Origin: a bacterium
GTDB lineage: Bacteria; UBA10199; JACPAL01; GCA-016699445
Direction: 5' to 3'
NCBI GenBank assembly: GCA_035454885.1
Contig: DATIGE010000038.1
Span: forward strand, 55,239-119,238
DNA: 64,000 nt
The position numbers and the translations under genes are program-made. Shown here one piece after another: positions 3,707 to 34,625 of the stretch. The notes below the pieces were generated by a model. It did not search any database, had not been told where the DNA came from, and saw only the letters and a program-made list of their open reading frames with translations. Within the stretch, counting starts at the first letter, position 1, and every line of letters starts with the position of its first letter.

Positions 3707-3827
3707 ACAAGTAAGTGCTTACTTACAAAAGATTAGACTTGCGAGACCGCCAAGTCCAGTTTTTTGACGGCGGTTGACATTCGCACCCTCCTCCGGTAGC
3801 CCTTGGCGCTCTTTTTCGGAGGATTGA

Positions 3828-4013
3828 ATGCCGGTTCCACGCAAGAAAAAGTCGAGGGCGCGCCGCAACAACCGTCGCTCCCATCAGCATCTGGCCAAAC
3901 TTCAGGTGCAAAAGTGCAAGCGCTGCGGCAGCCCGCGCCTCTCCCACCGCGTGTGCCCGTCCTGCGGCTTTCTCGGAGAGGCCGAGGTCTTCCGCATCGA
4001 GGAAGCCAAGTAA
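3828..4013 (+). CDS. rpmF: 50S ribosomal protein L32
   Basis: 61 aa MPVPRKKKSRARRNNRRSHQHL...CKRCGSPRLSHRVCPSCG. L32 family with zinc-ribbon cysteines. Confidence 0.9.
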   Translation: MPVPRKKKSRARRNNRRSHQHLAKLQVQKCKRCGSPRLSHRVCPSCGFLGEAEVFRIEEAK

Positions 4014-4016
4014 CCC

Positions 4017-4256
4017 ATGTCATCCGCGGTCGAGCAACGGGTGAAAGCGATCATCGCAGAACAGCTCGGAGTGTCGGAGGACGAAGTCGGTCCGTCGGAT
4101 TTGATCGTCGACGACCTGGGCGCGGACTCCGTCGACATCGCCGAGCTCATCATGGCGCTTGAAGAAGAGTTCGAGGTCGACATCTCCGATGAGGACGCGG
4201 AAAAGATGAGGAGCGTCAAGGATACCGTCGACTACGTCCGGAAGACCGTCCCATGA
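4017..4256 (+). CDS. acpP: Acyl carrier protein
   Basis: 79 aa with [20 protein letters not shown] phosphopantetheine-attachment Ser motif (DSL/DSV). Confidence 0.9.
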
Positions 4257-4705
4257 AACTTCTGATCGCCTCCGATCACGGCGGGTTCGCACTCAAGTCC
4301 CGCATCGTCGCCTTCCTGAGTAAGAGAAAGGTCCATATCGAGGACCTCGGCACGGATTCCGACGGATCCGTCGATTATCCCGACTTTGCCATCAAGGTGG
4401 CCGAGCGTGTCTCGCAGGGCCATGCGGACGCGGGCGTGCTCGTCTGCGGTACGGGCATCGGCATGTGCATCGTGGCCAACAAGTTCAGAAACGTCCGCGC
4501 CGCCGTCGTCAGCGATCCCTATTCTGCGAGAATGGCCAAGGAGCACAACAACGCCAACATCCTCTGCGTGGGCGGCCGCGTGTTGGAGGAGAACGGCAAG
4601 GCCGAAGAGATTCTCGCGGCCTGGCTGGACGCCCAATATCAAGGCGGCCGCCACGACCGCCGGCTGGACAAGATCCGGCAAATCGAAAAACAGAATTTCA
4701 AATAA
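4253..4705 (+). CDS. rpiB: Ribose-5-phosphate isomerase B (RpiB/LacAB family)
   Basis: 150 aa [15 protein letters not shown]...[16 protein letters not shown]... RpiB signature. ATGA overlap with acpP stop. Confidence 0.85.
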
Positions 4706-5677
4706 TCAAAGCCACTTCTTCTTCCGGAAAAAGTAAATCAGCCCCCCCGCGACCGCCACCAAGAGCCCCAACGTCATGTAGTATCCGTGCTCCCATTCCA
4801 GCTCCGGCATGTGTTTGAAGTTCATCCCGTAGATTCCGGTGATGACGGTCAAGGGCAGCATGATGGCGGCGGAGATCGTCAGGAGTTTCATGACCTCGTT
4901 CGCCTTGTTGGAGGAGGTGAGCAGGTGGGCCTCGATCAGCCCGCCGATGGCGTCCCGGTTGGATTCGGTGCGGTCGGAGATCCTCACCAGGTGGTCCCGG
5001 ACGTTGGAAAGGTAGGGGATTGAGATGGGAAGGACCTCGTCGTAACCTTCCTTGACCAAGCTCATCAGCATGTCGATCTGCTGGGCACAGATTCGCTTCA
5101 AACGCGCCAAGTTCCTCTTAAGACTGAAGATTTCAGGCAGGAGGTTCTTTTCATGCTGTTCCAGGACGTTGTCCTCCAGGACGGCGATCCGGCGGTCGAA
5201 CTGGTCCAGGACGGGCATATAAAGGTTGACCATCTCGTCCAGGAGCCGGGCCATGAGGAAGTCCGCGCTCCGCATCGCAGACTTGGGGTTCCGCTCCGCC
5301 CGCTCCTTCGCCATGGCGGTGCTGCGGAGTTTGGGCTTGTGGTAGGTCACCAGGAAATTCGCCCCCAAAAACATGTCGAGCTCGGCCGTCTTGAATTCCC
5401 GGTCGGCCGACTCCGCCGGCAGTACCTCGTGAAAGATGAGAAAGATGTAATCGCCGTACTGGTCGATCTTGGGCTGGTGTCTCGGAGAGAGACAGTCGTC
5501 GATGGTCAGCGGGTGAAAGTTGAAGGCGACGTCCAGGAGTTCGGTCTCCTCCGGCGTCGGTTTTTCAATGTCCACCCACGTCACGCGTGTCTTGTCGGCG
5601 ACCAGGGCGCGGATCTCGGAGGCGTTCTTCACCTCCTGCATGCCGGAGGTCTCGCTGTAGGTGAAGATCGTCAGCAT
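4706..5677 (-). CDS. corA: Magnesium/cobalt transporter CorA
   Basis: 323 aa. C-terminal two TM helices with YGMNF (GMN) motif: IYGMNFKHMPELEWEHGYYMTLGLLVAVAGGLIYFFRKKKW. Confidence 0.85.
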   Translation of the reverse strand: MLTIFTYSETSGMQEVKNASEIRALVADKTRVTWVDIEKPTPEETELLDVAFNFHPLTIDDCLSPRHQPKIDQYGDYIFLIFHEVLPAESADREFKTAELDMFLGANFLVTYHKPKLRSTAMAKERAERNPKSAMRSADFLMARLLDEMVNLYMPVLDQFDRRIAVLEDNVLEQHEKNLLPEIFSLKRNLARLKRICAQQIDMLMSLVKEGYDEVLPISIPYLSNVRDHLVRISDRTESNRDAIGGLIEAHLLTSSNKANEVMKLLTISAAIMLPLTVITGIYGMNFKHMPELEWEHGYYMTLGLLVAVAGGLIYFFRKKKWL

Positions 5678-5787
5678 ACGGGGATTGTATCGATTTGTAG
5701 CAGACGCCCGGAGACCGGTCCATCCCTTTTGACGGGGAAAAAATTCAGCCCGAGTATTCGCATGTATACGGAACTTGCCGAACTTTC

Positions 5788-5871
5788 TTGACTAAAGCGG
5801 CTCATCCATGTTTTTTATGCCGCCGTAACCTGAGCATAATCAAAACCTAGCATCACGGAGGGGGTTCTAAG
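5788..5871 (+). promoter_or_regulatory. Candidate promoter and strong RBS upstream of first beta-helix array gene
   Basis: TTGACT at 5788-5793 with AT-rich stretch downstream (ttttttatgc, gcataatc). GGAGGGGG Shine-Dalgarno at 5857-5864, 7 nt before ATG 5872. Promoter assignment is tentative. Confidence 0.25.
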
Positions 5872-8151
5872 ATGCAAAATCAATCACGCCGTAACTCCAT
5901 TTTTTTCGCGCTGACCGCGCTGGCTCTTCCGTTCACAGCCTTAACGGCCGGCACCGCTCACGCGGATTGCACGACGCCCGTCACGCACACGGTGACGAGC
6001 CTGGCCGATGACGGCTCGGTGGGCACCCTCCGGCAGCTCATCAACTCGGCGACGGTCGAAGACTGCGACACCATCGACATCCCGGCCGGGACGATCGTCT
6101 ATGACGGGACGGGTCCAGGGCAGATTCAGATTCGAAAGAACATTACCCTCCACGGCGCCGGCGCCGGGACGACCATCATCGACGCCAACGGTCCCAATAC
6201 GGCCGATCGCGCCTTCGAGATCGATCCGGATGACACCGGGGTCGGCGTGACGATGGAAGGGGTTACGGTTCAGAATGGACTCCCCGGCACGGACGGCGGC
6301 GGTATTATCCTCTCAAATAACGGATCCCTGCGACTGATCGACAGCGCGGTGATCGGGAATGAGGCGAGCGGCAATGGCGGTGGAATCCACTTGGATGATG
6401 ACGGAAGTTCATTGACCCTCGATAACTCGGTCATTTCGCACAACATCGCTTCGAGCGACGGTGGCGGCATTTATTTCGCGGGATCGGGCACCTCCGGCAT
6501 TATTGCCAATGGGTCCGTCATTTCCGATAACGAAGCCGGGAGCGAGGGTGGTGGAATCTATCACAGCGACGGCCAGTTGGAGGTCTTCAACAGCAGGATC
6601 ATCGACAACAAGTCGGGCAGTGACGGCGGCGGCATTTCCAATGAATTCGCCGCGATTACCCTGGTCGATTCTGAGATCAGTGGAAATGTGGCGGATTCCA
6701 GCGGCGGCGGTATCTACAACAATTACACGACCTTCATCGATAACTGTGTCATTAGCAATAATAAGACAACCAGCGACAACGACGGCGGCGGCATTTACAA
6801 CGACGACCTCTTATACATTGTCAAGAGCACGGTCTCAGGAAACCGCGCCGAGGGCGACGCCGGCGGGATCTATAACAGTGAAGGGATCACGATCGAAGAC
6901 ACAACGATTTCCGACAACATCGCGGACGTCGATGGAGACAACACGGGTGGCTGCGATGGCGGTTGCGGCGGAGGCATCTACAATAATTTCACCCTGACGC
7001 TCATTCGGAGCATCGTGAGCGGGAATACCTCCAACGGTGAAGCCGACGGCGGCGGGATCTACCAGAATGACTATGCGATCATCGTCGATTCTCTCATAGC
7101 CAACAACACGACAACGAACGGCGACGGCGGGGGCATCAGTGCCTGCAGCGAGCCGACATCAATCCGCAACACGACAATCTCCGGCAATCAGGCGAAGGGT
7201 GAGAGCAATGATGCTAGCGGTGAGGATGCCGAGGGCGGCGGCATATACAACTGCGAGCCGATGGATATCATCAACTCCACGATCGTGAACAATTCCGCCG
7301 ACGGCAGCGGCGGCGGTATCTATAATGACGAAGAGTTGACCCTCAATAACGTCACCATTGCGTTTAATACGGCGGACGCGAACGAGGGCGGCCTTTCCTT
7401 GGGCGACGGCGGCGGTGTTTACAACAACGCGCGGGTCGTCATGGTCAATAGCATCATCGCGGGAAATGCAGATGTCGGTCCGGGCCCCGGCGCCCCGGAT
7501 TGCTTCAATGATTTCAGCGGCGTTTCAAATGAAATGACTGCGGGTGGTCCCAACCTTGTCCAGGACACCTCCAACTGCGAAATCACGGGTTTCAAGGAAT
7601 TGGTTGTGGAGGCCGATCCTCTCTTTGACGCGGCGGGATTGGCCGACAACAGCGGCACCTCTGCGGGCGATCCTGACAGTCTTCTAGTCATCCAAACGGT
7701 CTCGCTCCAAAGCGGGAGCCCGGCCGTTGACGCCGGCGATACAGGGGTCTGTGCGACAACCGACGAGAGAGGTGTCAGCCGTCCCCAGGGAGCCGAATGT
7801 GACCTGGGTGCCGTGGAGGTTGAAGGTGGGGCGGGCCCTATCGACGATGACGACGATGACGACGACGGCGTCCTGGACGTCGACGACAACTGTCCCTCCG
7901 ATGCGAACGCCGACCAGGCCGATACTGACGGGGATGGCGTCGGCGACGCCTGCGACAACTGCGTGGACGATGACAACGCGGATCAGGCCGACGCGGACGG
8001 CGACGGCATCGGCGACGCCTGTGATTCAGGAGGTGGCGGCGGCGGATGCTCGCTCATGACGGCCGGTTCTTCCGGAGGCGGCCTTGTGGGTCTCCTCTCT
8101 CTCATGACCGTAGCGGGGATGTTTATGATCCGAAAGAAATCGTTCAAAAAA
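5872..8151 (+). CDS. Array unit A: secreted CSLREA-like/PbH1 beta-helix repeat protein with TSP3 Ca-binding repeats and full C-terminal GGCSL-TM-RKK sorting tag (no stop codon; continues in-frame into unit B)
   Basis: Signal peptide MQNQSRRNSIFFALTALALPFTALTAGTAHA. N-domain [30 protein letters not shown]. About 15 repeats of [LIV]x[DN]SxIxxNxAxxxGGGIYN. LADNSGTSAGDPDS...GSPAVDAGD...RPQGAECDLGAVE. DDDDDDDG plus DxDxDGxGDxCDNC (thrombospondin type 3) repeats. Tail GGGGGGCSLMTAGSSGGGLVGLLSLMTVAGMFMIRKKSFKK. Part of 1491-aa ORF 5872..10347. Confidence 0.8.
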
Positions 8152-10347
8152 ATGGCGCTCTTGGGCGGATTGGTCCTGCCCTTGATTCCGGCGGTGGCCC
8201 AGGCCGACTGCACGACCCCGGCGACCTTCACGGTCACCAACTGTGGCGACGACGGCTCGGTGGGGACACTCCGCCAGTTGATCCACAGCGCCTCGGTTCA
8301 GGATTGCGACACGATCCAGATCCCGGCCTGTACGATCGTGCTCGACACGGCAGGGTCGACGTTCTTTGCCGAGACGGACGCGAACGCGGACCTGGATGTC
8401 GACAAGAGCATCACGATTCGGGGGGCAGGTCCCGGTAGCACGGTCATCGATGCCGACGGCGCTGTCACAGGCGCCCGCGTCTTTGAAATCGATCCGGACG
8501 ATACCGGCGTTGGCGTTACGTTCCAAGGCCTGACGATCACCGGCGGACAGCCGTCGTCCGGTGAGGGGGGCGGCATTCTGGTCAGCAATCACGGCGTGCT
8601 TACGGTGCTCGATAGCGCCGTTGACGGGAACGACTCGGATACGGTTGCCAGCTCCGCGGGGGGCGGTATCGCCCTGCCGGATGACGGTTCCCTGATTCTG
8701 ACCAACAGTTCGGTCTCCAACAACAAGTCGGGTGATAACGGCGGTGGCCTCTGGTTCTCGTGCGGCGACGCCACCTCGGGAATTATCTCCAACAGCGAAA
8801 TCGACGGAAATACGGCGGTCAGCAACGGCGGTGGCGGCGTCTACATCGACTGCGGAACATTGGAGGTGATCAACAGCCGGATCACGAACAATGTGTCGGA
8901 CGGAAACTATGGCGGCGGTCTTTGGAACGAATACGCTTCCGTGTATGTCCTCAATTCCGACTTTATCGGTAACCGTTCCGAAGGAAGCCAAGGCGGTGGC
9001 ATTGAAAACGACTACACCATCCTGATCGACAATTGCTTGATCCAAGACAACGTGGCGACGAGCTCCTCCGGTTATGGCGGGGGAGTCGCAAACGAGGACG
9101 GCGGGATCATGACCATCATGAACTCGACCATCGACGGTAATCGGGCCGACGACGACGGCGGCGGAATTTACAATGATTATTACGCCGTCAATATCATCAA
9201 TAGCACGATTTCCAACAATGTCGCCGATGCCGACGATGATGGATCCGGCAATGGCGGCGGCATCAGCAACGACGATTGCTATCACCTCTATGTGACCAAC
9301 AGCTTGATCATCAATAACCTGTCCAAAGGTGATATCGGGGGCGGCATTTATCAAGACGGATACGCCATCATCGATAACAGCACCATCGCCGGCAACGTTG
9401 CGGCAAACAATCACGGCGGCGGCATCTATACGGATTGCGAGCCCACGGTGATCCGTAACAGCACGATCTCGGGGAATGCGGCCCTCGGTGACGACGGTTC
9501 TGATGACAGCCAGGGCGGCGGTATTTGGAATACGTACCCCCTGCTCCTCACGAACACCACGATCGCGAACAACCGCGCCGACGGTCATGGCGGCGGAATC
9601 TACTCCGACGATGAAGGTACGAGCCTCAACAATGTCACGATGACCGGCAACGTCGCCGATGCCAATGAAGGTGGCCTCAGTGGCGGCGACGGCGGAGGCA
9701 TTTACAACATTGACCGCGTGGCGGTCACCAACAGCATCCTCGCGGGAAATCTCGACGCCAGCCCCGGCCATGAAGCCCCGGACTGCTACAACAACTTTAC
9801 CATTGACGGAGACAGTATCGAGATCCTTGGCCCCAACCTCATTCAAGACACATCCGGATGCGAACTTCAGGGCCAATTGAGTCTCCTCATAGAAGCGGAT
9901 CCCCTGTTCGCTCCCGCCGGGCTGGCCGACAACGGCGGTTCCGATCAGGGGGACGACCCCAAGGAGCCCGCCAAGACCATCGGTCTCCAAGCCGGGAGCC
10001 CGGCGATCAATGCGGGCGATAATGGGTCCTGCGAACCGACGGATCAGAACGGCGTTGCACGGCCCCAGGGTGACAATTGTGATCTGGGCGCAGTCGAAGT
10101 CTCGGCGGCGGTTGGCCCCGTCGACGACGAGGATGACGACGACGACGGCGTTCTCGACGTGGATGACAACTGCCCCGCTGACGCGAACGCCGACCAGGCC
10201 GATGCGGACGGTGACGGTGTCGGCGACGCCTGCGACAACTGCGTGGACGATGACAACGCCGACCAGGCGGATGCGGATGCCGATGGCATCGGTGACGCCT
10301 GCGATACGGACGGCGGCGGTAGCGGTGGTTGTTCTTTGATTCGATAA
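8152..10347 (+). CDS. Array unit B: paralogous beta-helix repeat protein, TSP3 repeats, truncated tag ending GGCSLIR-stop
   Basis: In-frame ATG at 8152 begins signal peptide [18 protein letters not shown] followed by [29 protein letters not shown]. Same repeat architecture as unit A. Ends ...[17 protein letters not shown] with TAA at 10345-10347. Confidence 0.75.
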
Positions 10348-10415
10348 ATGACATTGGGGGGCGGCCTCGCGGGGCCGTCCCCCTCCATTTGCTCACAACC
10401 CGAGGAGCGACTCTT

Positions 10416-12809
10416 ATGACCAAACGTCTCGGCATACTCTCAATCTTTGCCTCCTTTATCATCACGGGACTCGCCCTGAGCTCTCCAGCTACGGCAGCCA
10501 CCTGGACCGTGACCAACGCCGCGGATGACGGCTCCTCGGGGACCCTCCGGACGATCATCGAAAATCCGGCCGTCATCGACGGCGACGTGATCGTCTTCGA
10601 TGCCAGCGTCACCACCGTCACCCTGACCGATGACCTCGACATCAACAAGAGCATCACGATCCGCGGAAACGGCGCGGGGACAACGATCATCGACGCCAAT
10701 GGCGCGGTCACGAACGACCGGGCCATCGACATCGACGCCGATGACCGGGGGGTGCATGTCGCCATCGAGGCCCTCACGGTCCAGGGGGGGCGTGAGGACT
10801 CGGGAACCGGCGGCGGCATTCGGATTCGCAACTCCGGCTCCCTCCTTCTGAGGGATTGCGAGGTCAAGGACAACCAGGTGACTGCGGGATCGACCGACGG
10901 CGGGGGTATTGCCATCGAATCCGACGGCGCCTTGGTCGTCGAAAACTCCACGATCTCGGACAACGCGGCGACGCAGGACGGCGGCGGCATTTATGCAAAC
11001 GCCGGCTTCATCGAAATCAAGAACAGCTCGATCGAGAACAATATCTCAAGCTTCGGCGCTTCCACCACGGACGGGGACGGCGGCGGCATCTACTCGGAAG
11101 ATGGAACCCTTAATATCATCGATACCGCCATCAAAGGAAACATCGCCGGCGACAACGACAGCACGTTCGACGATCCGGAGGATACGAGCAGCGAGGGCGG
11201 CGGCATCTACACGACGAGCGATCAATCGGCCACGATCACGGGGTCCGGCGCCTGCGAGATCAGCGGCAACAAGTCCGGTGGTGATGGCGGTGGAATTCAT
11301 AACGGCGAACTCATGTCGATCGATAACTGCCTCATCGACGATAACCATGCGATGAATGACCACGATGGCGGCGGCATCTACACGGAAGATCTTCTGACCC
11401 TGACGGACAGCACCGTCAGCAACAACGACGCCGAGGACAACGGGGGCGGCATCTACAACAGCGGATCACTCACAATCTTGAACAGCACGATCTCGGGCAA
11501 CACGGCCGACGTGGACGCGGACCCCGATGGAAGCCAGGGCGGAGGCATCTACACGGATAACTACTTCTTCCTCAGTGGCAGCGTCGTCCGCGGCAATATC
11601 TCCGTGAGCGGAGAAGGCGGCGGCATCTACTCGGACAGCTCCAACTACATCATCATCGAATCGAGCGTCATCGCCGACAACGAAGCCAGCGATCACGACG
11701 CCGGCGGGATCTATAACACCGGCGCCCCGATGATCATCCGCAACAGCACGATCTCCGGAAACCGGGCCCTCGGAGATGAGAACGGCGGCGGGACGGACAG
11801 TATCGGCGGCGGCATCGTCTCCTATTATCCCCTCATGATGTCGAACACGACCGTGGCCAACAACGAGGCCGACGGCGACGGCGGCGGCATCTATGCCTCC
11901 GGCGGCGACGATCACTTCTTCAACAACGTCACTATTTCGGGCAACGTCGCGGACCAAGAGGGCGGGGCCGATGGCGTCGGCGGCGGAATCTACAACGACG
12001 CCACCGGCGTCACGATTACCAATTCGATCCTCGCCGACAACTCCGATGACGCAACCGCGCCCGACTGCTTCAGCGATTTCTCGGCTGGTGCGGTTTTTAC
12101 GTCCCTCAGCGCCAATCTCATCGAAGTTACGACCGGATGCGACGTGACCGGTTTGGGACTCGTCACCGGCGACCCGGCCTTGGCCGCCCTGGCGGACAAT
12201 GGTGGCCCGGACGCCGGCGACCCCGACAGCCCCGAGCCGATCCTTACCAGCGCCATCGCGGCCGGCAGCGCGGCCTTGGACGCGGGCGACAGCGGGACCT
12301 GCGAGTTGGATGACGAGCGCGGTACGAGCCGGCCTCAAGGTCCGGCCTGCGATTTGGGGGCCTTTGAGCTCTTCACCGATACGGACGGCGACGGCATCGA
12401 GGACAACTCGGACAACTGCCCGTCGACCGCCAACGCCGGACAGGAAGACGGCGATGCCGACGGCGTCGGAGACGTCTGCGACAACTGCGCGGACGATGCC
12501 AACGCCGATCAGGCCGACACCGACGGCGACGGAACGGGAGACGCCTGCGAGGCGGCCGTGACGCCTGCCACGGATACCGACGGGGACGGCGTCCCGGATT
12601 CGACGGATAATTGCGATGCCGTCGCCAACGCGGACCAGGCAGATGCAGACGCTGACGGGATCGGCGACGCGTGTGACGCGGAAGACGGCGGGGGCGGTTG
12701 CAGCCTCAACGCCGGTTCCACCGCCGCGCGCGGAGCCACGGAGGGTCTTTCAATGTTCCTGATGTCGATCCTGGCCTTTGCCGGATTATGCCTGTTCCGG
12801 GGTAGGCGC
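10416..12809 (+). CDS. Array unit C: paralogous beta-helix repeat protein with TSP3 repeats and full GGCSL-TM-RGRR sorting tag (no stop; continues into unit D)
   Basis: GAGGAG RBS 9-14 nt upstream of ATG 10416. Signal peptide [41 protein letters not shown]-domain. GGGIY repeats. Four TSP3 repeats. Tail [41 protein letters not shown]. First unit of 3089-aa ORF 10329..19598. Confidence 0.8.
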
Positions 12810-15068
12810 GTGGCCCGCCGTGCCCTTCCGGCCGCGGCGATCCTGCTCCTGTTTTCCAGCACCGGCCGAGCGGCGGACATAACCGTCACGAGCCTCCTGG
12901 ACGACGGTACACCAGGGACACTCCGCAATGCGATCGCGACCGCGCTGGACGGGGACGTGATCATCGTTCCGGCTGGAACCATCGTACTCACCCTGGCGGG
13001 CGGCGCCTTTGACGCCGACACATTCCCGGATTTGGACATTACGAAAACAATCACCATCCAGGGCGCCGGGGCCGGAAGCACCTTCATCGACGGCAGCGGC
13101 GACCTGACCGCCGACCGCGTCTTTCATATCGATCCCAACGACACCGGGGCGGGGGCGACCCTCGAAGGCATGACCATCCAGGCCGGAAAGCCTTCGGCCA
13201 ACGGCGGCGGCGTCCTCATCGACAACCGGGGCTCCCTGACCCTTGTCGACAGCGTCGTGAGCGACAACGAGACCAATGGAGCGGACGGCGGCGGCATTTA
13301 TCTGAATGAGGGCGCCTTGGCCGTGATCCGCTCGACCGTCCGGACCAACGTCGCCGACGGCAACGGCGGAGGCATCTACAATACCAGCGGCTCCCTGATC
13401 ATCTCCGATGGGAGTTCCGTCACCGGCAACATCGCGACCTCCTCCGGGGGAGGCATCTATACCGATGCGGGAGGGCTCGACGTCATCAACAGCCAAATCA
13501 ACAACAACGATGCGGACAGCGACGGCGGCGGTATCTACAACGGCTACACGGCCGTGGTCCTGAACAATTCGGATTTGAGCGGCAATACGGCCGAGGGCAA
13601 CGGCGGCGGCGTTTACAATGGTTATACGCTGCTGATCTCTGCCTCCACGGTCTCCCACAATCAGGCCCTGAATGACAGTGACGGCGGCGCTGTCTTCAAT
13701 GACGTGGAGCTCTGGGTCGAAGACAGTACCCTTTCCGACAATGGAGCCGATGACGATGGCGGCGCCATCTACAACAACTCAACGGCCGTGATCGAGCGCA
13801 GCACGATCGCCGACAATGCCACCGATATCGACTCCGACGGCTCCGAGGGCAATGGCGGCGGGATCAACACCGACGGTGATCTCTACGTGCGGGAGAGCAG
13901 CATCCTGAGAAACGTGGCCGGCGGCGGCGGCGTCGGGGGCGGTATCTCCGGCACGGGCAGTGAGTACACGGTCATTGATCGGAGCACCATTGCCGACAAC
14001 GTGGCCGCGGATAACGACGGCGGAGGCATCTATTTCGACAATTCCCAGACCATCATCACGAACAGCACCATCTCCGGCAACATCGCCCTGGGGGATCAGC
14101 ACAATTCGGCCTCAACCGACAGCCAGGGCGGCGGCATTTGGCACGACGAAGCGCTGACCATGACCAATTGTACGGTCGTCGGGAACCGTGCCGACGGCGA
14201 CGGCGGTGGGATCTACGTGAATTCCGACAGCGATGCGAACATCATCCTGAGCAACGTGACGATCACGGGCAATACCGCCGATGCCAACGAAGGAGGCTTC
14301 TCGGGCGGCGAAGGCGGAGGCGTCTTCAACGATCAGGGTGTGCTGCTCACCAATTCCATCATCGCCGGGAACACGGACGCCAGCTTCATTTCCACTTCCC
14401 CCGATTGCTACAGCAACTTTACCGGGGATGGTAACAACTTCACCGTCGTCGGACCGAATATCATCCAAAATCTGGATGGTTGCGAGGTCGTGGGAGACGT
14501 CTCAAGTCTCCGGAGCGACGATCCGCTCTTCGACCCGGCCGGCCTGGCCGACAACGGTGGCCCGACCCAGACCTTGGCCCTTCAGGCCGCGAGCCCTGCC
14601 TTGGACGTGGGTGACAACGGCTCCTGCGAACTCACCGACCAGCGCGGCACTGCGCGGCCCCAAGGCGCGGCTTGCGACTTGGGCGCCTTCGAATTGGAGC
14701 CCGACGCCGATGGCGACGGGATTCCCAATACTTTGGACAACTGCCCCGACGTCTCCAATGCGGACCAAACCGACACGGACGGCGACGGCGCGGGTGACGC
14801 CTGCGACACGGACGACGACGGAGACGGCGTCGCCGACGGGGTCGACAACTGCCCTCTGGTCGCCAACGCGGACCAGGCCGATGAAGACGGCGACGGGATC
14901 GGCGCCGCCTGCGACACCGATGACACCGGCGGCGGCACGACCGGCGGCGGAGGAAACGGTGGGGGATGCGGCCTAGTCGCGAGTGGTGATGCGAAGCCTC
15001 ATGTCACCTTCTGGGCCGTGTTCGCCGGCCTTGCGGCCTTAGCGGCGCTTCGGATGAGGAAAATCGCG
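12810..15068 (+). CDS. Array unit D: paralogous beta-helix repeat protein with TSP3 repeats and full GGCGL-TM-RMRK tag (no stop; continues into unit E); start codon uncertain (GTG)
   Basis: Signal-peptide-like (M/V)[20 protein letters not shown] followed by [24 protein letters not shown]. No in-frame ATG at the boundary, so GTG 12810 is proposed. Tail [39 protein letters not shown]. Confidence 0.65.
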
Positions 15069-17411
15069 ATGAAAAAAGGCTTTTGGATTTTGGCGCTGGC
15101 GTCATTGTTGCTTCCGTCCACCGCCGGTGCGGTTACCTACAACGTCGATCCAAACTCGATGGGTGCGGCGCCGACCGTTCCGGACGGAGATCCGGGGTCC
15201 CTGCGTTTCTATCTCGAGAACATCGCGCTCGCGGACGGCGACACCGTCGTCATCCCGTCAGGCACGGTCAATCTCGACTCAACCATCGGGGAGATTGAAA
15301 TCAGGCGGAACGTAACGATCCAGGGCGCAGGCGCTTCCGACACCATCATCGACGGAAACGGGGCCGGAGGCGGCGACGATCGCGTCTTCAGCATCGACCC
15401 GGACGACACCGGCATCGCGGTGACCATCTCGGGGGTCACCATCACGGGCGGCGATGTGGGCGCCAGCGGCGGCGGCATTCTCCTGAGCTGGACAGCGAGT
15501 CTGACCCTCATTGATTCGGTGGTCGACGGAAACCACTGCACCACCAGCGGTGGCGGCATCGATGTGGAGGATCAGGGAACCCTCGTGCTCATCAACAGCA
15601 CGGTCTCCAACAACACCGCGGACAACGACGGCGGCGGTATCTGGAGCGGCGAGGGGTTCGTCCATGTCATCGGCAACAGCGTCATTGGGCCCAATAATCA
15701 GGCCCTCGGCAGCTACGGCGGCGGCATTTACACTAGCGGCGGCGTCCTTCAGATCGTGGACAGCCAGGTCACGGGCAACCGCGCGGACGATTATGGCGGC
15801 GGGCTCTATCTCGACAGCAACCAAGATACCTCGGCCTATCTCCTGAATTGCGAGATCACCAACAACGCGACCATCAACGATGACGGCGGGGGGATCTATA
15901 ACGACAGCACCCTCTTCATCGACAACTGCCGGATCGCCGGAAACACAGCAGACGGAGACGGCGGCGGCATCGACAATAGTGAACATCTCACCCTAATCAA
16001 CAGCACCATCTTCGGCAATCACGCCAACGAAAGCGCGGGTGGTATCTACAACGACGACGGTCTCACAATCAGCAACTCGACCATTTCCGAGAATATCGCC
16101 GACTTTAACGACGACGGTTCCGGCGGTTACGGCGGCGGAATCTACAATAACGACTATCTTTCACTCTCCGACAGCTTGGTCAGCAACAATATTTCAATCA
16201 GCAACAACGGCGGCGGTATCTATTTCAACGATTACGCCGTTCTGGACGGAGTGGCCGTCACGGGCAACATCGCCCAAGACGACGACGGAGGCGGCCTTTA
16301 TGTCGACGGGGACCCGGTTGTCCTACGGAACTGCACCATTTCCGGAAACGCCGCCCGCAACAACAGCGACGGGGGTGGACTTTATACGACCTATGCGATG
16401 GATATCTCCAACACGACCATCGCCAACAATACGGCAGACGGCAACGGCGGCGGACTTTACAACGATTCCGGCGGTGACGGCATCCTTCTCAACAACGTGA
16501 CCATTACGGGTAACGAATCGGACGCGGATGCGGCCGGCGGTGGTGACGGCGGCGGATTCTATGACGACAACTCGGACGCCGTCATGATCAACACGATCAT
16601 CGCGGGCAATACGAGCCCCAACCTGGGGGATGACTGCATCAGCGATTCGACCGCCGGCGCGAGTACGTTGACCTCGGGCGGTCCCAACTTCGTCGGTGTC
16701 GTCGATACCGACTGCGACATTGAGGGCGACGATACGGCCGTCCTGACCGGAGACCCCGGCTTCGCCGCGGCCGGCCTGGCCGACAACAACGGTCCCTTGG
16801 TCGGAGACCCCGAGGCCCCGGTCCGGTTGCAGACGGTTGCCCTGGCCCCGGCCAGTGCCGCGGCCGAAGCGGGCGACAATGCAAGTTGCGCCTTGACCGA
16901 CGAGCGCGGCGTGACCCGGCCCCAGGGCGCCGATTGTGACCTGGGAGCGTTTGAACTGGTCGTGGATACCGACGGCGACGGGGTAAGCGACGACGTCGAC
17001 AACTGCCCCGCTGCATCCAACGCCGATCAGGCGGACGGTGATGCCGACGGTGTGGGCGACGTCTGTGACAACTGTCCGGCGGACGCCAACGCCGACCAGG
17101 CGGACGCGGACGGCGACGGGACGGGCGACGTCTGCGAGGCGCCTCCCGCGGTCTGCGGCAATGGAGACGTGGAGACCGGTGAAGGATGCGACGACGGCGA
17201 TACGGACGCGGGAGACGGTTGCAGCGACACCTGCAGCGTGGAAGCCGGTTTCACCTGTTCCGGGGAGCCCTCCGTCTGCACCGAAACGGCCGGGGACGGC
17301 GGAGGCTGCTCCCTGACGGACGGGGGCACATCGGCGGCTGCGACCGGCCCCTTGATGGCGATTTTCGCAGGTTTAGGGGTCCTGTTTCTCCGTCGCATGG
17401 GGAAAAAAACA
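15069..17411 (+). CDS. Array unit E: paralogous beta-helix repeat protein with TSP3 repeats, Myxococcus-type Cys-rich repeat and full GGCSL-TM-RRMGKK tag (no stop; continues into unit F)
   Basis: GAGGA RBS 8-12 nt upstream of ATG 15069. Signal peptide [39 protein letters not shown] repeats. TSP3 repeats. [35 protein letters not shown] (Myxo_disulf_rpt-like). Tail [39 protein letters not shown]. Confidence 0.75.
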
Positions 17412-19598
17412 ATGAAAAAGGCTCTGTTGGGCATGGGATTTCTGGCCTTGATGCTTCCGGCGGGCACGGTGGGTGCGGCGACCTTTACCGTGACGAAGAT
17501 CACGGACGACGCCCCGGATGGCAACTGCGACGCCGATTGCTCCCTGCGCGAGGCCGTTATTGCGGCCAATGCAAGCGTCGGAGTTGATGACGAAATCGTG
17601 ATTCCGGCCGGAATCTATCAGTTGACCATTGCCGGCGCGGGCGAGGACCTTGCCGCGACGGGCGATCTTGACATTACGGACAATGTGATCATCACCGGAT
17701 CCGGCTCTCTGACGACCGTCATTGAAGGCAATGGTGCCGCCACTGGAGATCGGGTCTTTCATATCGATGCCGGCGCGAGTCCCGGCGTTGCCGCGAGCGT
17801 CGTGATGACCGGCGTCACCATTCAAGGAGGCAATGTCAGTGGGAGCGGGGGTGGAATAAACATCGACAATCGCGGTTTCTTGAGGATCGTAGACAGCCTC
17901 GTCTTTGGAAATGACGCTACAGGCGATGGCGGCGGTATTCACTTGGACGATGACGGTTCGGGCCTAGTCGTGGAAAACTGTACCCTTTCCAATAATATCT
18001 CGGAGGACGATGGCGGAGCCATCAGCAACGACGACGGCTCCCTTCTCGTCAAGAACAGCACGATTGCTGAAAACAAGGCCGGCGATGACGGCAGCGGAAA
18101 CGGCGGCGGCATCTACAACAACGAGGACGGGGCCGAGATCATTGACACCCGGGTCGTTGACAACGAGACTGGAAGTTCGAGCGGCGACGGCGGCGGCATC
18201 ATGAATGACTACGGGGCGATGACCATCACCGGCAGCGGCAACTGCGAAATCAGCGGAAACCGCACCCTTGCCGGCGAGGGTGGGGGAGTCGACAACGAAT
18301 ACACCATGCTGATCGACAACTGCCTGATCGCCGAAAACCAGGCCCTGGACGACAACGACGGCGGCGGTGTCTACAACGACGATGAGATGGTGATCCTGAA
18401 CAGCACGATCAGCGGGAACCGCTCCGAAGACAGCGGCGGGGGCGTCTATAACTACTACCACATCACCATCGACAACAGCACGATCGCCGACAACATCGGA
18501 GACACCGACGAGGATGGAGGCGGCGGCGGCGAAGGCGGCGGCGGGATCCACTTCGACGACTGGAGCACGGTCAGTAACTCCATCATTTCCGGAAACACAC
18601 ATCTGACCGGAGAGGGCGGCGGTATCGACGCCTATTACTACTTCGTCCTCGATAACTGCCTCATTACCGGCAACACCGCGGCGGACAATGACGGCGGCGG
18701 GATTGCGACCGATTACCCCGGCGTCATCCGGAACACTCTGATCAGCGACAATCGTGCCCTTGGGGATCAGAATAATTCGGCCACGGACGACAGCAATGGC
18801 GGCGGCATTGCGACAGACTACCCGCTCCAGATCATCAACACGACCATTGTCAACAACCAGGCGGATGGCCATGGCGGCGGAATTTGGAGTGATGATAAGC
18901 TGGACTTGAACAACGTGACGATCGCCTTCAACACGTCGGACGCGAATGAGGGAGGTTTTACGGGCGGCGACGGCGGCGGAATTTACAACGATGATGACAT
19001 GGTATTCAGCAATACCCTCATTGCCGGCAATACCGACGCGAGCCCCGGCGCCGAGGCCCCGGATTGCCTCAACGACTTCACGGGTGCCGGGAACAGCATG
19101 GCTTCGAGCGGGCCCAACATAGTCCAAGACCCGTCTGGTTGTGAGATCACCGGTGATCCGACGGGCGTCCTGAATGTGGACCCCCTCTTTGATCTGGCGG
19201 GTCTGGCGGACAACGGCGGTCGGTTCGCCGGCGACGAGCCGACCTCGGTGGTCCAAAGCCTCTCCCTGCAGGCCGGGAGCCCCGCGATTGACGCCGGTAA
19301 CAACGCCACCTGCGACCCGACCGACCAGGTCGGTACCGATCGTCCCGTCGGCGACGCCTGTGACCTGGGCGCCTTGGAGGTTACAACCCCCGCGGCCCCC
19401 CCGGTTCCGCCGGTCGTGCCTGCTGTTTGTGGAAACGGCGACGTGGAGACCGGTGAGGGCTGCGATGATGGCGACACCACTGCGGGCGACGGTTGCAGCG
19501 CTACCTGTGTGGTCGAAGATGGCTTTACCTGCACGGGTGAACCGTCGGTCTGTACCGAGGAGTCGGGAGGCAGCGGCGGTTGCAGCTTGATTAGATAA
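17412..19598 (+). CDS. Array unit F: paralogous beta-helix repeat protein with canonical CSLREA motif, Myxococcus-type Cys-rich repeat, no TSP3 repeats, truncated tag GGCSLIR-stop
   Basis: ATG 17412. Signal peptide [23 protein letters not shown]-domain ...[31 protein letters not shown] repeats. Ends ...[56 protein letters not shown] with TAA 19596-19598. Confidence 0.75.
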
Positions 19599-19604
19599 TA
19601 CGAA

Positions 19605-19676
19605 GGGCGAACACGAGGTTCGCCCCGACACTATCTCGAAGGCGGCCCTCGAAAGAGGGTCGCCTTTTTTGTTTTG
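19605..19676 (+). terminator. Tandem hairpins / rho-independent terminator after beta-helix array
   Basis: gggcgaacacgaggttcgccc hairpin, then ggcggccctc-gaaa-gagggtcgcc stem followed by TTTTTTGTTTT. Confidence 0.6.
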
Positions 19677-19678
19677 CC

Positions 19679-20986: not shown

Positions 20987-21444
20987 AATGCCCTTTCTGT
21001 AACCATCCCAACAGCAGCGTCGTCGACAGCCGCGACTCCAAGGAAGGCGAGACGATCAGGCGCCGGCGCGAGTGCGACACGTGCGGCAAGCGGTTTACCA
21101 CCTACGAGCGCGTCGAGGAGCTCCTCCCCCTCGTCATCAAAAAGGACGGCCGCCGCGAGCCGTTTGACCGCAAGAAGATCGTCGGCGGCATCCAGAAGGC
21201 CTGCGAGAAGAGGCCCGTGCCCATGGAGAAGATCGAGGAGACCGTCGACCGGATCGAGCGGGAGATCGTCGAATTGGGCGAGAAAGAAGTGAACTCCAAG
21301 GAGATCGGCGAGCGGATCATGCGCGCCTTGCACGATCTGGATCACGTCGCCTACGTCCGATTCGCCTCCGTCTACCGGGACTTCAAGGACGTGAACCAAT
21401 TCCTAAACGAACTGCAGGGGCTGCTCAACGATAAGAAGAAATAA
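20983..21444 (+). CDS. nrdR: Transcriptional repressor NrdR
   Basis: 153 aa [46 protein letters not shown]... Zinc ribbon plus ATP-cone. ATGA overlap with glyA. Confidence 0.9.
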
Positions 21445-22198
21445 AGTCCTGAATTCGCGCATCCGTCGCCGCCGCGACGCTTTCCGAGGCCCGATGCAGG
21501 ACCGTGATGCCCCGCGTGAAAGGGTCGACCATCACCTGAAATTCGATGAAGACGGGCTCGCCGCGAAGAAAACCGAAGAGGGTATGGCGAAAGCATCGGC
21601 CCCTCCGGTGGCATGCCCGCTCCGCGAGCGCATTTAAGTCGTCGTCCGTCGGCAGGGGGTTCCGTGACGGCGGATGGACATGCGCCACCCAGGTCACGTC
21701 GAAAAAAGATTCCTCGAAAACATCGTAGGTTTCGCCTCCCAGGACGGACCGGTCGGACGCCGAGGGAGAGCCCTCGCGCACCTCGTAGCGCGATGGCCGA
21801 GAGGCCGGTCCGTGGCGGAAGAGCGAGTAGTGGTGACCCGTCAGTTGGGAGCGATTGATGAGGTAGTCGACGATCTCCTGAGGGAGGGTCGTATGAGGGA
21901 GCCGGACGGTGAAGGCCGAACGGTAGGGCGTCCACGCGTTGGGAGAACGGTGACTCGCGCCGGCGGGAAAGAAGACCGAGGGCGCGTCGGAGAAATGCGT
22001 TTCCAAGTGGTTTCCATGGACCGGTCCGGGAAGGGGCTCCGACGCAGAAACGGCCATGGGCGCACCGGCCCTGGCCTGCACGTAGGCGTTCGCGGCGAGA
22101 TAGGCTTGGACGGCGAATAGACCCAAAGACATGGCGCTTTCTTCGCCGGGGGAGCGTTCAAAGTTGCCAACTAAAGATACCGGTGTTTGCGGAACCAT
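21425..22198 (-). CDS. Hypothetical protein (start uncertain)
   Basis: 257 aa ORF with balanced composition, unlike surrounding Arg/Gly-rich spurious frames. Contains [16 protein letters not shown] (HxHP...T.D, weakly JAMM-like). Convergent 20-nt overlap with nrdR. Confidence 0.4.
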
Positions 22199-25055: not shown

Positions 25056-26177
25056 TCATTTCGGCATTTCGGGAGGAGCGACCACGGGGTAGGGGTTGCC
25101 GTCCAGGGCTTTCAGGAACGCCACCAAATCGGTTTTTTCCTGAGCGGTCAGATTCAACGCCTCCATCCGCACATCCAAATTGGGATTCTTGGTGCCCCCC
25201 CGGTTGTAGAACTCGACCACGTCCTCCAGAGTTTTTTCCGAGCCGTCATGCATGTACGGGGCCGTCTTCGTGACGTCTCGCACCGTCGGCGTCTTGAACG
25301 CGCCCATGTCTTCCTTCGCCTTGGTGACCGCAAAGCGTCCCTGATCGGGTTTGGGCTTGTTCTGTCCGACCCCCAGGTTGTGGAACATGCTGTCCGAAAA
25401 ATTCGGGCCCGCGTGGCAGCGCGTGCAGAGGGCCTTTCCGAAGAAGAGGTCGCGGCCGCGGATATCCTGTTCCGTCATCGCCGTCTTGTCGCCGAAGGTC
25501 CACCGGTCGTAGCGGGAATTGCCGCTCAAGACCGTCCTTTCGAACGATGCGATCGCCTGGGCGATGCGTTCCTTGGTGATGGCCTCATCGCCGAACGCCT
25601 TCTTGAAGTACGGCGCGTAGCCCGGGATCGACTTGCAGGTGGAGACCATGACCTCGTGCGAGGGGAGCCCCATCTCCACCGGATTGACGACGGGTCCCAG
25701 CGCCTGCTCCTCCAGCGTGGCCGCCCGGCCGTCCCAGAATTGCAGGGCCATGTAGGTGGCGTTCACCACCGTCGGCGCGCTCACCGTGCCCTTCTTGCCG
25801 TGAATGCCCGCGGAGACGGGTTCGTTGTCCGTCCATCCCTGGCGGGGGTTGTGGCAGGTCGCGCAGGAGACCTTTCCGTCGGCCGAGAAACGCGCGTCGA
25901 AATAAAGCAGCCTTCCCAACTCCGCCTTCTCGGGCGTCAAAGGATTGTCGGCGGGGATGTTCAGGTTTTCGTTGTCCAGGCCCAGGGGGACTTGGAGCCA
26001 GGGGGCCTCTTTGGAAGGATTCGAGGTCGGGATGGTTGGCGCCGTTTCGGGCGAAGGAGCGGGGGCTGCCGCCGCGGGCCCGGTGGCGGCAGGCTGGGTC
26101 GCCGGGGGCGCTTCGGTTTTTGGCGCGCAGGCGGCCACGGCTGCGATCAGTGCGAGTCCGGTGAGGATGTTTTTCAC
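25056..26177 (-). CDS. Di-haem cytochrome c peroxidase (CCP/MauG family), lipoprotein
   Basis: 373 aa. Lipobox LIAAVAAC. Two haem-binding motifs CATCH and CTRCH. Conserved ...FWDGRA...PYMHDG.... Confidence 0.85.
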   Translation of the reverse strand: MKNILTGLALIAAVAACAPKTEAPPATQPAATGPAAAAPAPSPETAPTIPTSNPSKEAPWLQVPLGLDNENLNIPADNPLTPEKAELGRLLYFDARFSADGKVSCATCHNPRQGWTDNEPVSAGIHGKKGTVSAPTVVNATYMALQFWDGRAATLEEQALGPVVNPVEMGLPSHEVMVSTCKSIPGYAPYFKKAFGDEAITKERIAQAIASFERTVLSGNSRYDRWTFGDKTAMTEQDIRGRDLFFGKALCTRCHAGPNFSDSMFHNLGVGQNKPKPDQGRFAVTKAKEDMGAFKTPTVRDVTKTAPYMHDGSEKTLEDVVEFYNRGGTKNPNLDVRMEALNLTAQEKTDLVAFLKALDGNPYPVVAPPEMPK

Positions 26178-26268
26178 GTTTCAGATCCTCCAAGAAGTTT
26201 AAGTCGTGAATCGCACAGAGTGCGATTTCCCCCTGGAGGTTTCTTACCCGATTTGAGATGGATTTTGA

Positions 26269-27477
26269 ATGAAGAAAATCGTCCCGTTCCTCTGCCTCTG
26301 GGTCGCCCTCTGCGGGTTTGCCCTCAATCCCTTCGGCTGTTCTTCGTCCAAGAAGGACGTCGTCGTCTTCACGCCCGTGGGGGCGTCGTTCGGAACCGCG
26401 AACCTGATCGATCTGGAGTTTTTGCCGGGTACGGACGGAGAGGCGGTCGTCATCGCCAAGGACGGGACGGTTTTTTACATGACGAAGGACTTCGCGCCGC
26501 TGGCTCAAACGGTGACCGTGGGAGTTCTCGACGAAGACGAACAGGGCCTTTTGAACGTCGTCGCCGACCCGGGCTACGCGGATAATCATTTTATCTATTT
26601 GTACGGCACGTTGCCGACGGGCGACGGCAACCACCTGGGCCGCTACACGGTGGCGGTGGACATCTCCGCCGGCACCTTCGATCTGACCGATCCCCAGGCG
26701 GTCGAAATCTTCTCGAAAACGGCTTCCCCGGACTTCGACGGCCACCACAACGGCGGCGGCCTGGTCTTTGGCTCCGACGGCGCGCTTTATTTGGGCGTCG
26801 GGGACGGCGGCGGCGCGGGCGGGCCCGATACCATTCTCGCCCTCGCCCAGGACGGCACGAATCCCCTGGGCAAGATCCATCGCATCCTTCCCAACCGGAA
26901 TCCGGGCGAGGGCGGGGCCCTCGTCTCGGAGATCCACGGGCGGGGGTTCCGAAATCCCTTCACGCTGGCGGTGGGGCCGGCCGGTCTTTTCGTCGGCGAC
27001 GTCGGCTCGACGCGGGTGGAGGAGGTCGATCTCCTGCCCGAACCGGGACTCAACTTCGGCTGGCCCATCACCGAGGGGCCGTCGAGCCTCTTCACTTACG
27101 TGAATCCCGTCCACTCCTACGAGCACACGGACAACAAATTCGCGAAGGAAGACCCGACGGAGAGCGACTTTGACGTCATCGAAGGAGACGCCGATGAGAC
27201 TTCGAATCCCCAGTCCGTCATTGTCGGGGCCTTCTACGAAGGCGGCCAGTATGACGGAAAGCTCGACGGCCGCCTGATCTACAGCGACTTCTTCCAGGGC
27301 TGGGTGCGCGGCTTCAAGCTCAAGGAGGGCGACGAGGGTCTCACGATCGATGACGACAAGCACCTGGGCCATTTGAACGGGCTGACGTCCCTCCAAAAGG
27401 GGCCGGACGGGTTCTTATACGCAATTTCGCTCTTCGGGTCGGATCATGTCTTGCGGGTGGATTTGGCGGGGCATTAG
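26269..27477 (+). CDS. PQQ-dependent sugar dehydrogenase (soluble glucose/sorbosone dehydrogenase-like beta-propeller), lipoprotein
   Basis: 402 aa. Signal MKKIVPFLCLWVALCGFALNPFGCSS. HHNGGGLVFGSDGALYLGVGDGG and RGFRNPF motifs typical of GSDH family. Confidence 0.75.
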   Translation: MKKIVPFLCLWVALCGFALNPFGCSSSKKDVVVFTPVGASFGTANLIDLEFLPGTDGEAVVIAKDGTVFYMTKDFAPLAQTVTVGVLDEDEQGLLNVVADPGYADNHFIYLYGTLPTGDGNHLGRYTVAVDISAGTFDLTDPQAVEIFSKTASPDFDGHHNGGGLVFGSDGALYLGVGDGGGAGGPDTILALAQDGTNPLGKIHRILPNRNPGEGGALVSEIHGRGFRNPFTLAVGPAGLFVGDVGSTRVEEVDLLPEPGLNFGWPITEGPSSLFTYVNPVHSYEHTDNKFAKEDPTESDFDVIEGDADETSNPQSVIVGAFYEGGQYDGKLDGRLIYSDFFQGWVRGFKLKEGDEGLTIDDDKHLGHLNGLTSLQKGPDGFLYAISLFGSDHVLRVDLAGH

Positions 27478-34579: not shown

Positions 34580-34625
34580 CGCTCACTCCGAAAGGGAACC
34601 TTTCTTCGCCCGCTATAGTGAATTG

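Follow-up and report, generated by a model that had tools for sequence, protein, structure and literature searches.

Chained beta-helix units with mosaic stalks and a conserved Gly/Cys motif in a tandem bacterial gene array

MYXO-CTERM surface proteins of Myxococcota, such as TraA and MtsC with the protease MrtX and a secretion system of type II (T2SS), are among the described systems that come closest to the locus presented here. Their pathway (Haft 2023, doi 10.1101/2023.06.07.544157; Guo, Haft and Wall 2025, PMC11980579) is the basis of the analogy used below, and the cleavage by MrtX has been described (PMC11980579). The TraA protein of Myxococcus xanthus consists of a head, a Cys-rich stalk and a MYXO-CTERM signal, and its Cys-rich repeats have been proposed to form a rigid stalk (PMC3325183). 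There is also a precedent in principle, since sorting tags are stated to be functional in mid-protein (PMC11980579): in MXAN_5598 of M. xanthus an internal MYXO-CTERM was attributed to a gene fusion, and the N-terminal part was proposed to be still processed and anchored (PMC11980579). We have analyzed a stretch of 64,000 nucleotides (here called the window) of a bacterial genome, assembly GCA_035454885.1, contig DATIGE010000038.1, positions 55,239 to 119,238. Two very long open reading frames (ORFs) of the + strand, 5872-10347 and 10329-19598, translate into six homologous units arranged in tandem and in the same orientation, which we call A to F. The region of interest is the 3' end of a 9.2-kb gene that codes for four head-to-tail copies (C-F), and the adjacent gene codes for two further copies (A-B).

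From the N to the C terminus, each unit contains a Sec-type signal peptide, a beta-helix head of ~600 amino acids (aa), a short stalk and the Gly-rich motif GGC[S/G]L with its Cys. Stop codons are absent between A and B and also among C, D, E and F, and this gene layout implies two secretory polyproteins, A-B and C-D-E-F. The reading that we favor, and that we consider probably correct as a whole, is that these are chained secreted beta-helix proteins in which stalks made of old, exchangeable cassettes, kept by purifying selection, precede a Cys anchor. At the internal unit ends, 8-15 small residues separate the GGC[S/G]L motif from a hydrophobic helix of ~16 residues. A basic cluster comes next and passes without a break into the following signal peptide, with its hydrophobic core and AxA site.

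This design is not restricted to the window. A scan of GTDB species genomes gave the nearest loci in metagenome-assembled genomes (MAGs) labeled 'bacterium' SMAG_U1372 (loci L001, L003 and L006), 'bacterium' CBDCFN01 (L004) and 'Deltaproteobacteria bacterium' OFTM19 (L005), and a search with GlyA found closer relatives, among them L083 (JGI 3300013121) and L082 (Logan SRR34141493), with GlyA at 90-91%. A search of a representative library with the D/E junction region returned 63,415 matches, swamped by TSP3-repeat proteins, the useful ones being P0256 and P0382. The same junction appears at 15 distinct places in the window and four other assemblies, and also in L082, L083, P0256 and P0382. Altogether, ~21 distinct junctions in seven assemblies are stop-free and in frame despite a sequence divergence of ~40-50%. 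Public gene callers annotate the chained relatives as single proteins of 2858-3020 aa. Our literature search (bacterial polyproteins with internal signal peptides; 'choice-of-anchor') found no account of this arrangement, and the only precedent that it gave for the chaining of a sorting signal with a signal peptide was the fused MXAN_5598 (PMC11980579). Both share a Cys-type sorting signal in mid-protein followed by a second exported part. However, MXAN_5598 is a single case made of two unlike halves, while here two to four or more like units are chained systematically and in a way conserved across the clade, each window junction carrying a new signal peptide that is predicted to be cleavable. 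We regard the conserved polyprotein layout, together with the short GGCSLIR tail described below, as a novel variation on C-terminal sorting of the Cys type; each of the two is found again in at least seven assemblies. The layout is more surprising and more important than the stalk mosaic, which alone would be expected of a 'choice-of-anchor' family.

The units and their parts are given here one by one. The calcium loops of the stalks are of two classes, 'a' (DxDGDGxxDxxDNCP type) and 'b' (NADQxDxDxDGxGDxC type). TSP_3 scores come from a stalk-only scan with Pfam PF02412 (gathering cut-off 25 bits), and those of the Cys-rich repeat from TIGR02232 (curated cut-off 20.8 bits). A full tail has the transmembrane (TM) helix and the basic cluster, and the asterisk marks the stop.

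5872-8151, + strand: unit A; signal peptide 5872-5964, core up to 7818, in frame into B
7843-8025 and 8041-8151, + strand: C-terminal part of A; TSP3 stalk (poly-Asp a-loop, b, b; TSP_3 30.5 bits, TIGR02232 none), then full Cys tail with TM helix and RKKSFKK
8152-10344 (10347 with the TAA stop), + strand: unit B; signal peptide 8152-8205, core up to 10098
10123-10305 and 10324-10344, + strand: C-terminal part of B; TSP3 stalk (poly-Asp a-loop, b, b; TSP_3 33.4 bits, TIGR02232 none), then short tail GGCSLIR*
10416-12821, + strand: unit C; ATG 10416 after GAGGAG, core up to 12368
12378-12551, 12573-12677 and 12693-12821, + strand: C-terminal part of C; TSP3 a-b-b, linker and distal TSP3 a-b (TSP_3 78.1 bits, TIGR02232 none), then full Cys tail with TM helix and basic cluster
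12822-15068, + strand: unit D; without its own ATG; segment like a signal peptide at 12822-12872, core up to 14693
14703-14915, 14916-14960 and 14961-15068, + strand: C-terminal part of D; TSP3 a-b-a-b (TSP_3 74.6 bits, TIGR02232 none), G/T-rich linker, then full Cys tail (GGCGL) with TM helix and basic cluster
15069-17411, + strand: unit E; signal peptide 15069-15131, core up to 16955, in frame into F
16965-17138, 17151-17285 and 17301-17411, + strand: C-terminal part of E; TSP3 a-b-b (TSP_3 36.5 bits), Cys-rich repeat (TIGR02232 42.0 bits), then full Cys tail with TM helix and RRMGKKT
17412-19595 (19598 with the TAA stop), + strand: unit F; signal peptide 17412-17477, CSLREA motif 17520-17570, core up to 19379
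19383-19424, 19425-19559 and 19575-19595, + strand: C-terminal part of F; Pro-rich linker, Cys-rich repeat (TIGR02232 46.8 bits; TSP_3 none), then short tail GGCSLIR*
8041-8205, 12693-12872, 14961-15131 and 17301-17477, + strand: the four stop-free unit junctions, each with Cys motif, TM helix and basic loop, then the AxA-bearing signal peptide of the following unit

Clear Shine-Dalgarno motifs were found only before A (GGAGG, 5841-5871) and before C (GAGGAG, 10385-10415), with the starts at ATG 5872 and ATG 10416. The TTG at 10329, which overlaps the end of B in another frame, is merely the first in-frame start after a stop and probably not used. An alternative is that the absent stops are incidental and each unit is translated from its own internal start codon; in its favor, B, E and F begin with ATG and a GAGGA lies ~9 nucleotides (nt) upstream of the E start. 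Yet D has no ATG, the A/B and C/D junctions have no Shine-Dalgarno motif, and a ribosome that starts at A or C could not terminate before B or F. Besides, the four junctions of the window are all open in frame, like those of the other assemblies. We consider this separate translation very improbable.

The region is highly repetitive in protein, with dozens of GGxI repeats and many short DNA matches of 60-80%, which could raise the suspicion that collapsed or chimeric repeat assembly produced both the module differences and the missing stops. Actually, the units are too divergent for a collapse (56-61% DNA identity), and independent JGI, Logan, ENA and NCBI assemblies show this gene again, with its four units, a length of ~3020 aa, an identical type of junction and the F stalk unchanged in kind; in L083, an independent contig, the F stalk is 90% identical. 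An artefact of this kind, which an earlier note made from the letters of this DNA had named as the outcome that would undo its description of the array, is thus effectively refuted.

The mosaic reaches the extreme tails of the units as well. A, C, D and E have the full tail, Cys motif plus TM helix (seen as hydrophobic peaks) plus basic cluster; B and F end in GGCSLIR*, with neither TM helix nor basic cluster. GGCSLIR* is the end of 11 of the 13 distinct termini of terminal and single-unit proteins compared at the DNA level, the variants being IRE and IPHP. P0382 terminates in GGCSLVR, and one relative has a full tail at the terminus. The codons used for Ser, Leu, Ile and Arg vary among the 13 termini, indicating that selection acts on the peptide itself. 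These terminal tails (10324-10347 and 19575-19598 in the window; L001, L002, L003, L006, L082 and L083) are almost always followed by TAA. None of the curated sorting-signal models matches the GGCSLIR tail. A regular-expression search for other proteins with these tails in the window and in the loci of the relatives gave only this family and spurious frames, and a homology search with the 72 aa of the F stalk plus tail returned 14 candidates, all of them short DUF4215 fragments, none belonging to another family with a GGCSLIR tail.

The likeness to MYXO-CTERM proteins concerns the signal peptide, the head, the Cys-rich or TSP3 stalk and the Gly/Cys motif, and in A, C, D and E, but not in B and F, also the TM helix and the basic cluster. 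The MYXO-CTERM model TIGR03901 is the recurrent best Cys-type match for the tails; of 10 tails of relatives tested, eight match at 9-22.6 bits, one above the cut-off of 20 bits. The MtsC model of NCBIfam (NF047638), which joins TSP3 and MYXO-CTERM, matches the TSP3 stalks locally. There are also clear differences. The window motif GGC[S/G]L has a single Cys instead of GCGC, and the window tails score below the curated cut-off. MYXO-CTERM is expected at the C terminus, but four of the six window tails are internal to a polyprotein with the next signal peptide in frame after each, and the other two consist of GGCSLIR alone, the TM helix and the Arg cluster both being absent. The TraA repeat belongs to TIGR04201 and the window repeat to TIGR02232. 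A GlyGly-CTERM assignment was also considered and rejected: there is no TIGR03501 match, only an 8.8-bit trace to a GlyGly-CTERM protein family model, and the motif contains an invariant Cys.

By analogy with the MYXO-CTERM proteins, each unit would be exported by Sec and tethered by its tail helix, the Cys of GGC[S/G]L would be lipidated, a CPBP-type (myxosortase-like) protease might cut after this Cys, and the T2SS could move the protein to the cell surface. The stalk would then act as a spacer between the lipid anchor and the head, a role that has been proposed for the Cys-rich repeats of TraA. The positive-inside rule of topology predicts at each junction a TM hairpin, in which the helix of the sorting signal would be joined by a basic loop on the cytoplasmic side to the signal peptide that follows, and signal peptidase would separate the units. 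A more specific version, which we put forward tentatively, is that the two genes code for true polyproteins with one ribosome start each (A or C), Sec-threaded as large periplasmic domains alternating with TM hairpins. Signal peptidase (AxA) and a myxosortase-like CPBP protease (GGC[S/A]L) might then yield, from one translation product, two to four surface proteins with an anchor each. GGCSLIR would serve this pathway of Cys lipidation and CPBP cleavage as a minimal substrate similar to a CaaX box, and the TM helix would thus be dispensable for recognition. One may speculate that the seven-residue tail resembles the short CaaX-like peptide after a Cys, a suggestive likeness given that the protease family is related to Rce1. 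If the proteins are processed as proposed, the array would lend itself to testing what is recognized by the protease and by the lipidating enzyme, and whether a membrane tether is needed, since one locus offers full tails and seven-residue tails on homologous proteins.

The heads belong to well delimited families. All six units pass the choice-of-anchor Q model NF041518, whose curated cut-off is 25 bits (A 59.5, B 58.2, C 47.2, D 82.1, E 53.3 and F 54.0 bits), as well as the PMP repeat model PF02415 (28.7-53 bits). The CSLREA N-terminal domain TIGR04214 is above its cut-off of 25 bits in unit F only (30.9 bits, aa 25-53). The heads are built of PMP-type GGxI repeats capped by the choice-of-anchor Q domain, and a conserved core end, CDLGAxE, precedes the stalk. 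An AlphaFold2 (AF2) model of unit F, built on an alignment of 26 sequences, predicts a right-handed beta-helix at residues ~20-660, with a mean predicted local distance difference test score (pLDDT) of 84 and a predicted template modeling score (pTM) of 0.84. The stalk and the last ~60 residues were modeled with low confidence (pLDDT <50). In a Foldseek search of the PDB with this model the best matches were beta-helix proteins, the top one being Rhombotarget A (9CDV/9CDU) with a weak similarity (E=4.4e-05, TM-score 0.2-0.3, 14% identity). By its name we take Rhombotarget A to be a beta-helix protein with a C-terminal sorting tag. This tag, GlyGly-CTERM with rhombosortase, is of a different class from the window tails.

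The closest database homolog of unit E is just 42% identical. Homologs with the choice-of-anchor Q domain bear diverse C-terminal modules (dockerin, DUF11, Big_9, SLH, DUF4215), which indicates that variable C-terminal ends are typical for this family. Most of them are single-unit proteins, whereas the window units form chains through junctions of sorting signal and signal peptide, and what varies in them is a short stalk before a fixed Cys motif. With the chlamydial Pmp proteins the window units share the PMP repeats, a beta-helix passenger and the condition of paralogous multigene family. Unlike them, they end in the stalk and Cys tail, and a Pmp autotransporter was rejected, no autotransporter beta-barrel domain having been found in the units (E<=0.01). 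The N-termini are also heterogeneous: CSLREA is present only in F, and mature A and B both start with DCTTP (5965-5979 and 8206-8220). The mosaic thus extends beyond the C-terminal end, and both N-terminal types are found again in relatives.

Between the core end and GGC[S/G]L, the stalks measure 70-150 aa and differ in composition among the units. The earlier note had described this as conserved beta-helix cores followed by differing combinations of discrete modules, and profile hidden Markov models and alignments confirm that the stalk mosaic is real; all the peptides that it quoted are present in the translations of the two ORFs. It had placed the Cys-rich repeat only in E and F, as do our scans: TIGR02232 matches E at aa 696-730 (E=5.9e-11) and F at aa 673-707 (E=1.9e-12), and gave no match in units A-D. 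Pfam DUF4215 remained below its cut-off of 27 bits on the single copies of E and F (14.5 and 16.8 bits). The absence of TSP3 from F also holds, with no TSP_3 match in the stalk-only Pfam scan even at E<=10, A to E passing the cut-off, and the Pro-rich linker is found in F alone among the six units. Two other statements need some correction. The note had counted three to four TSP3 repeats in C, D and E. By inspection D has four calcium loops and E three (as A and B), but C has five; the stretches matched by Pfam TSP_3 are three in A, B, D and E and four in C. The poly-Asp runs that it reported in A and B are certainly there, but not as separate linkers. They are matched by the TSP_3 profile (stalk residues 10-33) in register with the DTDGDGxxDxxDNCP loop that comes first in C and E, and so represent an acidic variant of the first calcium loop.

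How old are these differences? Within the window the cores of different units share 45-55% of their residues and 56-61% of their nucleotides. As to internal repeats in the DNA, the longest are one of 300 nt (76%) and one of 177 nt (85%), each of them between A and B. No tract longer than 177 nt exceeds 85% identity, and near-identical DNA tracts between units are absent. The Cys-rich modules of E and F are 89% identical in protein and 74% in DNA. However, the same codon is used at 17 of 41 identical residues, against 19.4+-3.1 expected when synonymous sites are randomized with the codon usage of the gene itself (z=-0.8). With synonymous sites fully randomized, the high identity of these modules reflects purifying selection on old cassettes, not collapse or recent conversion.

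The comparison with the relatives shows that cassettes have been exchanged. The units of L083 are one-to-one orthologs of C, D, E and F, with core identities of 79, 72, 64 and 69% respectively, versus 45-54% for other pairs. C and its ortholog L083_u1 are collinear, nearly residue for residue, over the proximal 61 aa (a-b-b) up to GTGDACE. Beyond this point the window unit has the TSP3 a-b block and the orthologs L083_u1 and P0256 have a Cys-rich repeat. The E ortholog of L083 lacks 13 aa, the second half of the Cys-rich repeat. The F ortholog retains Pro-rich linker, Cys-rich repeat and GGCSLIR, its stalk being 90% identical versus 69% for the core, and the B ortholog retains GGCSLIR after a TSP3 stalk of the poly-Asp kind. 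None of the four cores of L082 is a recognizable ortholog of a window unit (43-54%), yet L082_u3 has a stalk 74% identical to that of E over a core of 43%, and L082_u4, the terminal unit with a GGCSLIR tail, one 71% identical to that of D over a core of 48%. At the stalk position of more distant genomes there are G/T-rich, GE-repeat, acidic or P/G/S/T-rich linkers. The stalk type tracks the genome and not the core subfamily, the stalks of SMAG_U1372 being nearly all G/T-rich. These discordant identities indicate that stalks and heads have had partly independent histories, which supports shuffling on an evolutionary time scale. Cassettes have been gained, lost or swapped at cassette borders between paralogs and orthologs, an exchange that is real and dates far back.

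Divergence is faster in the heads than in the stalks, and also faster than in the flanking genes. GlyA is 89-91% identical to that of the relatives, NrdR 89-90% and AcrB 70%, and the unit cores 64-79% in L083 and 43-54% in L082 and SMAG_U1372. This divergence of the heads beyond the housekeeping genes fits what is expected for exposed surface proteins and for a surface-protein locus in fast evolution. In L082 it suggests either head replacement or a very fast divergence of the heads at a fixed locus. Such divergence, together with tandem paralogs in one orientation and a mild same-codon excess in the TSP3 blocks of A/B and C/E (z=2.0 and 2.4), could also be what an active array would leave in which cassette shuffling or gene conversion goes on, as in antigenic-variation loci, the module differences being recent. 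But the near-identical DNA cassettes and recent conversion tracts expected of such a locus were not found between the units, the synonymous sites of the E/F modules are saturated, and the stalk architectures of F, D and B are unchanged in orthologs with cores only 69-72% identical. No recombinase, invertase or silent cassettes were seen beside the array. We regard ongoing variation as improbable. The shuffling claimed in the earlier note thus stands as exchange at module borders, with no sign of its being recent or ongoing, so that its interpretation is partly supported. Identity in a sliding window over the six units gives a best partner that keeps changing, yet with no sharp tracts of high identity, and is not decisive for or against old recombination in the cores.

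It could also be argued that the stalks are unconstrained low-complexity spacers, differing in composition by the noise of insertions and deletions. The linkers found at this position in relatives (G/T-rich, GE-repeat or P/G/S/T-rich) and the low pLDDT of the F stalk would agree with this. Still, the Cys-rich module and Pro-rich linker of F are conserved at 90% in an ortholog with 69% core identity, the E and F modules remain alike in protein despite their saturated synonymous sites, and the TSP3 loops retain the calcium-binding Asp/Asn/Cys pattern. Together these observations indicate purifying selection on folded modules stabilized by ions or disulfides, and make neutral drift unlikely. What emerges is a stalk between head and anchor built of conserved, exchangeable calcium-binding and disulfide cassettes under a head that evolves fast. 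This is useful for the annotation of choice-of-anchor proteins and for engineering display scaffolds.

Several points weigh against the reading of chained, Cys-anchored proteins with cassette stalks. In the window TIGR03901 matches only the tail of E, at 15.5 bits and below the cut-off, with no match for the tails of A, C and D or for the ends of B and F. A MYXO-CTERM signal would be expected in a host of the Myxococcota or Bradymonadales whose genome also codes for a cognate myxosortase (CPBP family) and a T2SS; among the ~40 ORFs scanned in the 64 kb neither a sorting enzyme of the CPBP, rhomboid or exosortase kind nor a gene for a T2SS was detected. As B and F have no TM helix or basic cluster, the canonical model of membrane-tethered processing is not applicable to them as written. 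With stalks modeled at low confidence, their rigidity and spacer role stay at the level of a model. The codon excess in the A/B and C/E blocks makes some later exchange between them possible. Finally, neighbor-joining of 24 unit cores gave a star-like tree in which few nodes had support, so that donor and recipient of the cassette moves cannot be assigned.

Regarding the host, the nearest labeled relatives are MAGs named 'bacterium' and 'Deltaproteobacteria bacterium'. GlyA has matches at 76-78% identity in Ignavibacteria, Bacteroidota or Chlorobi, and no Myxococcota appear among the labeled entries of the top 120 matches, most of these entries carrying no label. The hint towards Myxococcota given by the TSP3 stalks, the TIGR02232 repeat and the MYXO-CTERM-like tails, which resemble the toolkit of that group, is plausible as an analogy. 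Upstream of the array (1-3113 and 4253-5677) there are an AcrB-family pump and an outer-membrane efflux protein (OEP), then rpiB and corA. The pump and the OEP indicate a diderm host.

The array is syntenic: in SMAG_U1372 it is also located between acrB/OEP/rpiB and glyA/nrdR. There it begins directly after rpiB, with no corA, and is of larger size, two contigs together bearing at least 14 units. L083 and L082 have a called gene of 3020 aa immediately upstream of glyA; in L082 this four-unit gene (864-9926) has the same length as in L083 and lies beside a glyA that is 91% identical. A hairpin resembling an intrinsic terminator follows the array in the window, and an Rfam scan of the window gave no matches.

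19638-19677, + strand: intrinsic-terminator-like hairpin, 13-bp stem followed by a T run, closing the C-F transcription unit

Downstream of nrdR, there is an ORF of 257 aa (21425-22198, - strand) for which neither a Pfam match nor a TM helix prediction was obtained. This ORF is ~50% identical to ORFs at the same position in L002 and L006, and L082 and L083 have unannotated genes of 229 aa there. The long ORFs 1899-3197 (opposite the OEP gene, 1827-3113), 25585-27396 and 34623-36104 look like antisense shadows of real genes in this DNA of 62% GC, and should not be annotated.

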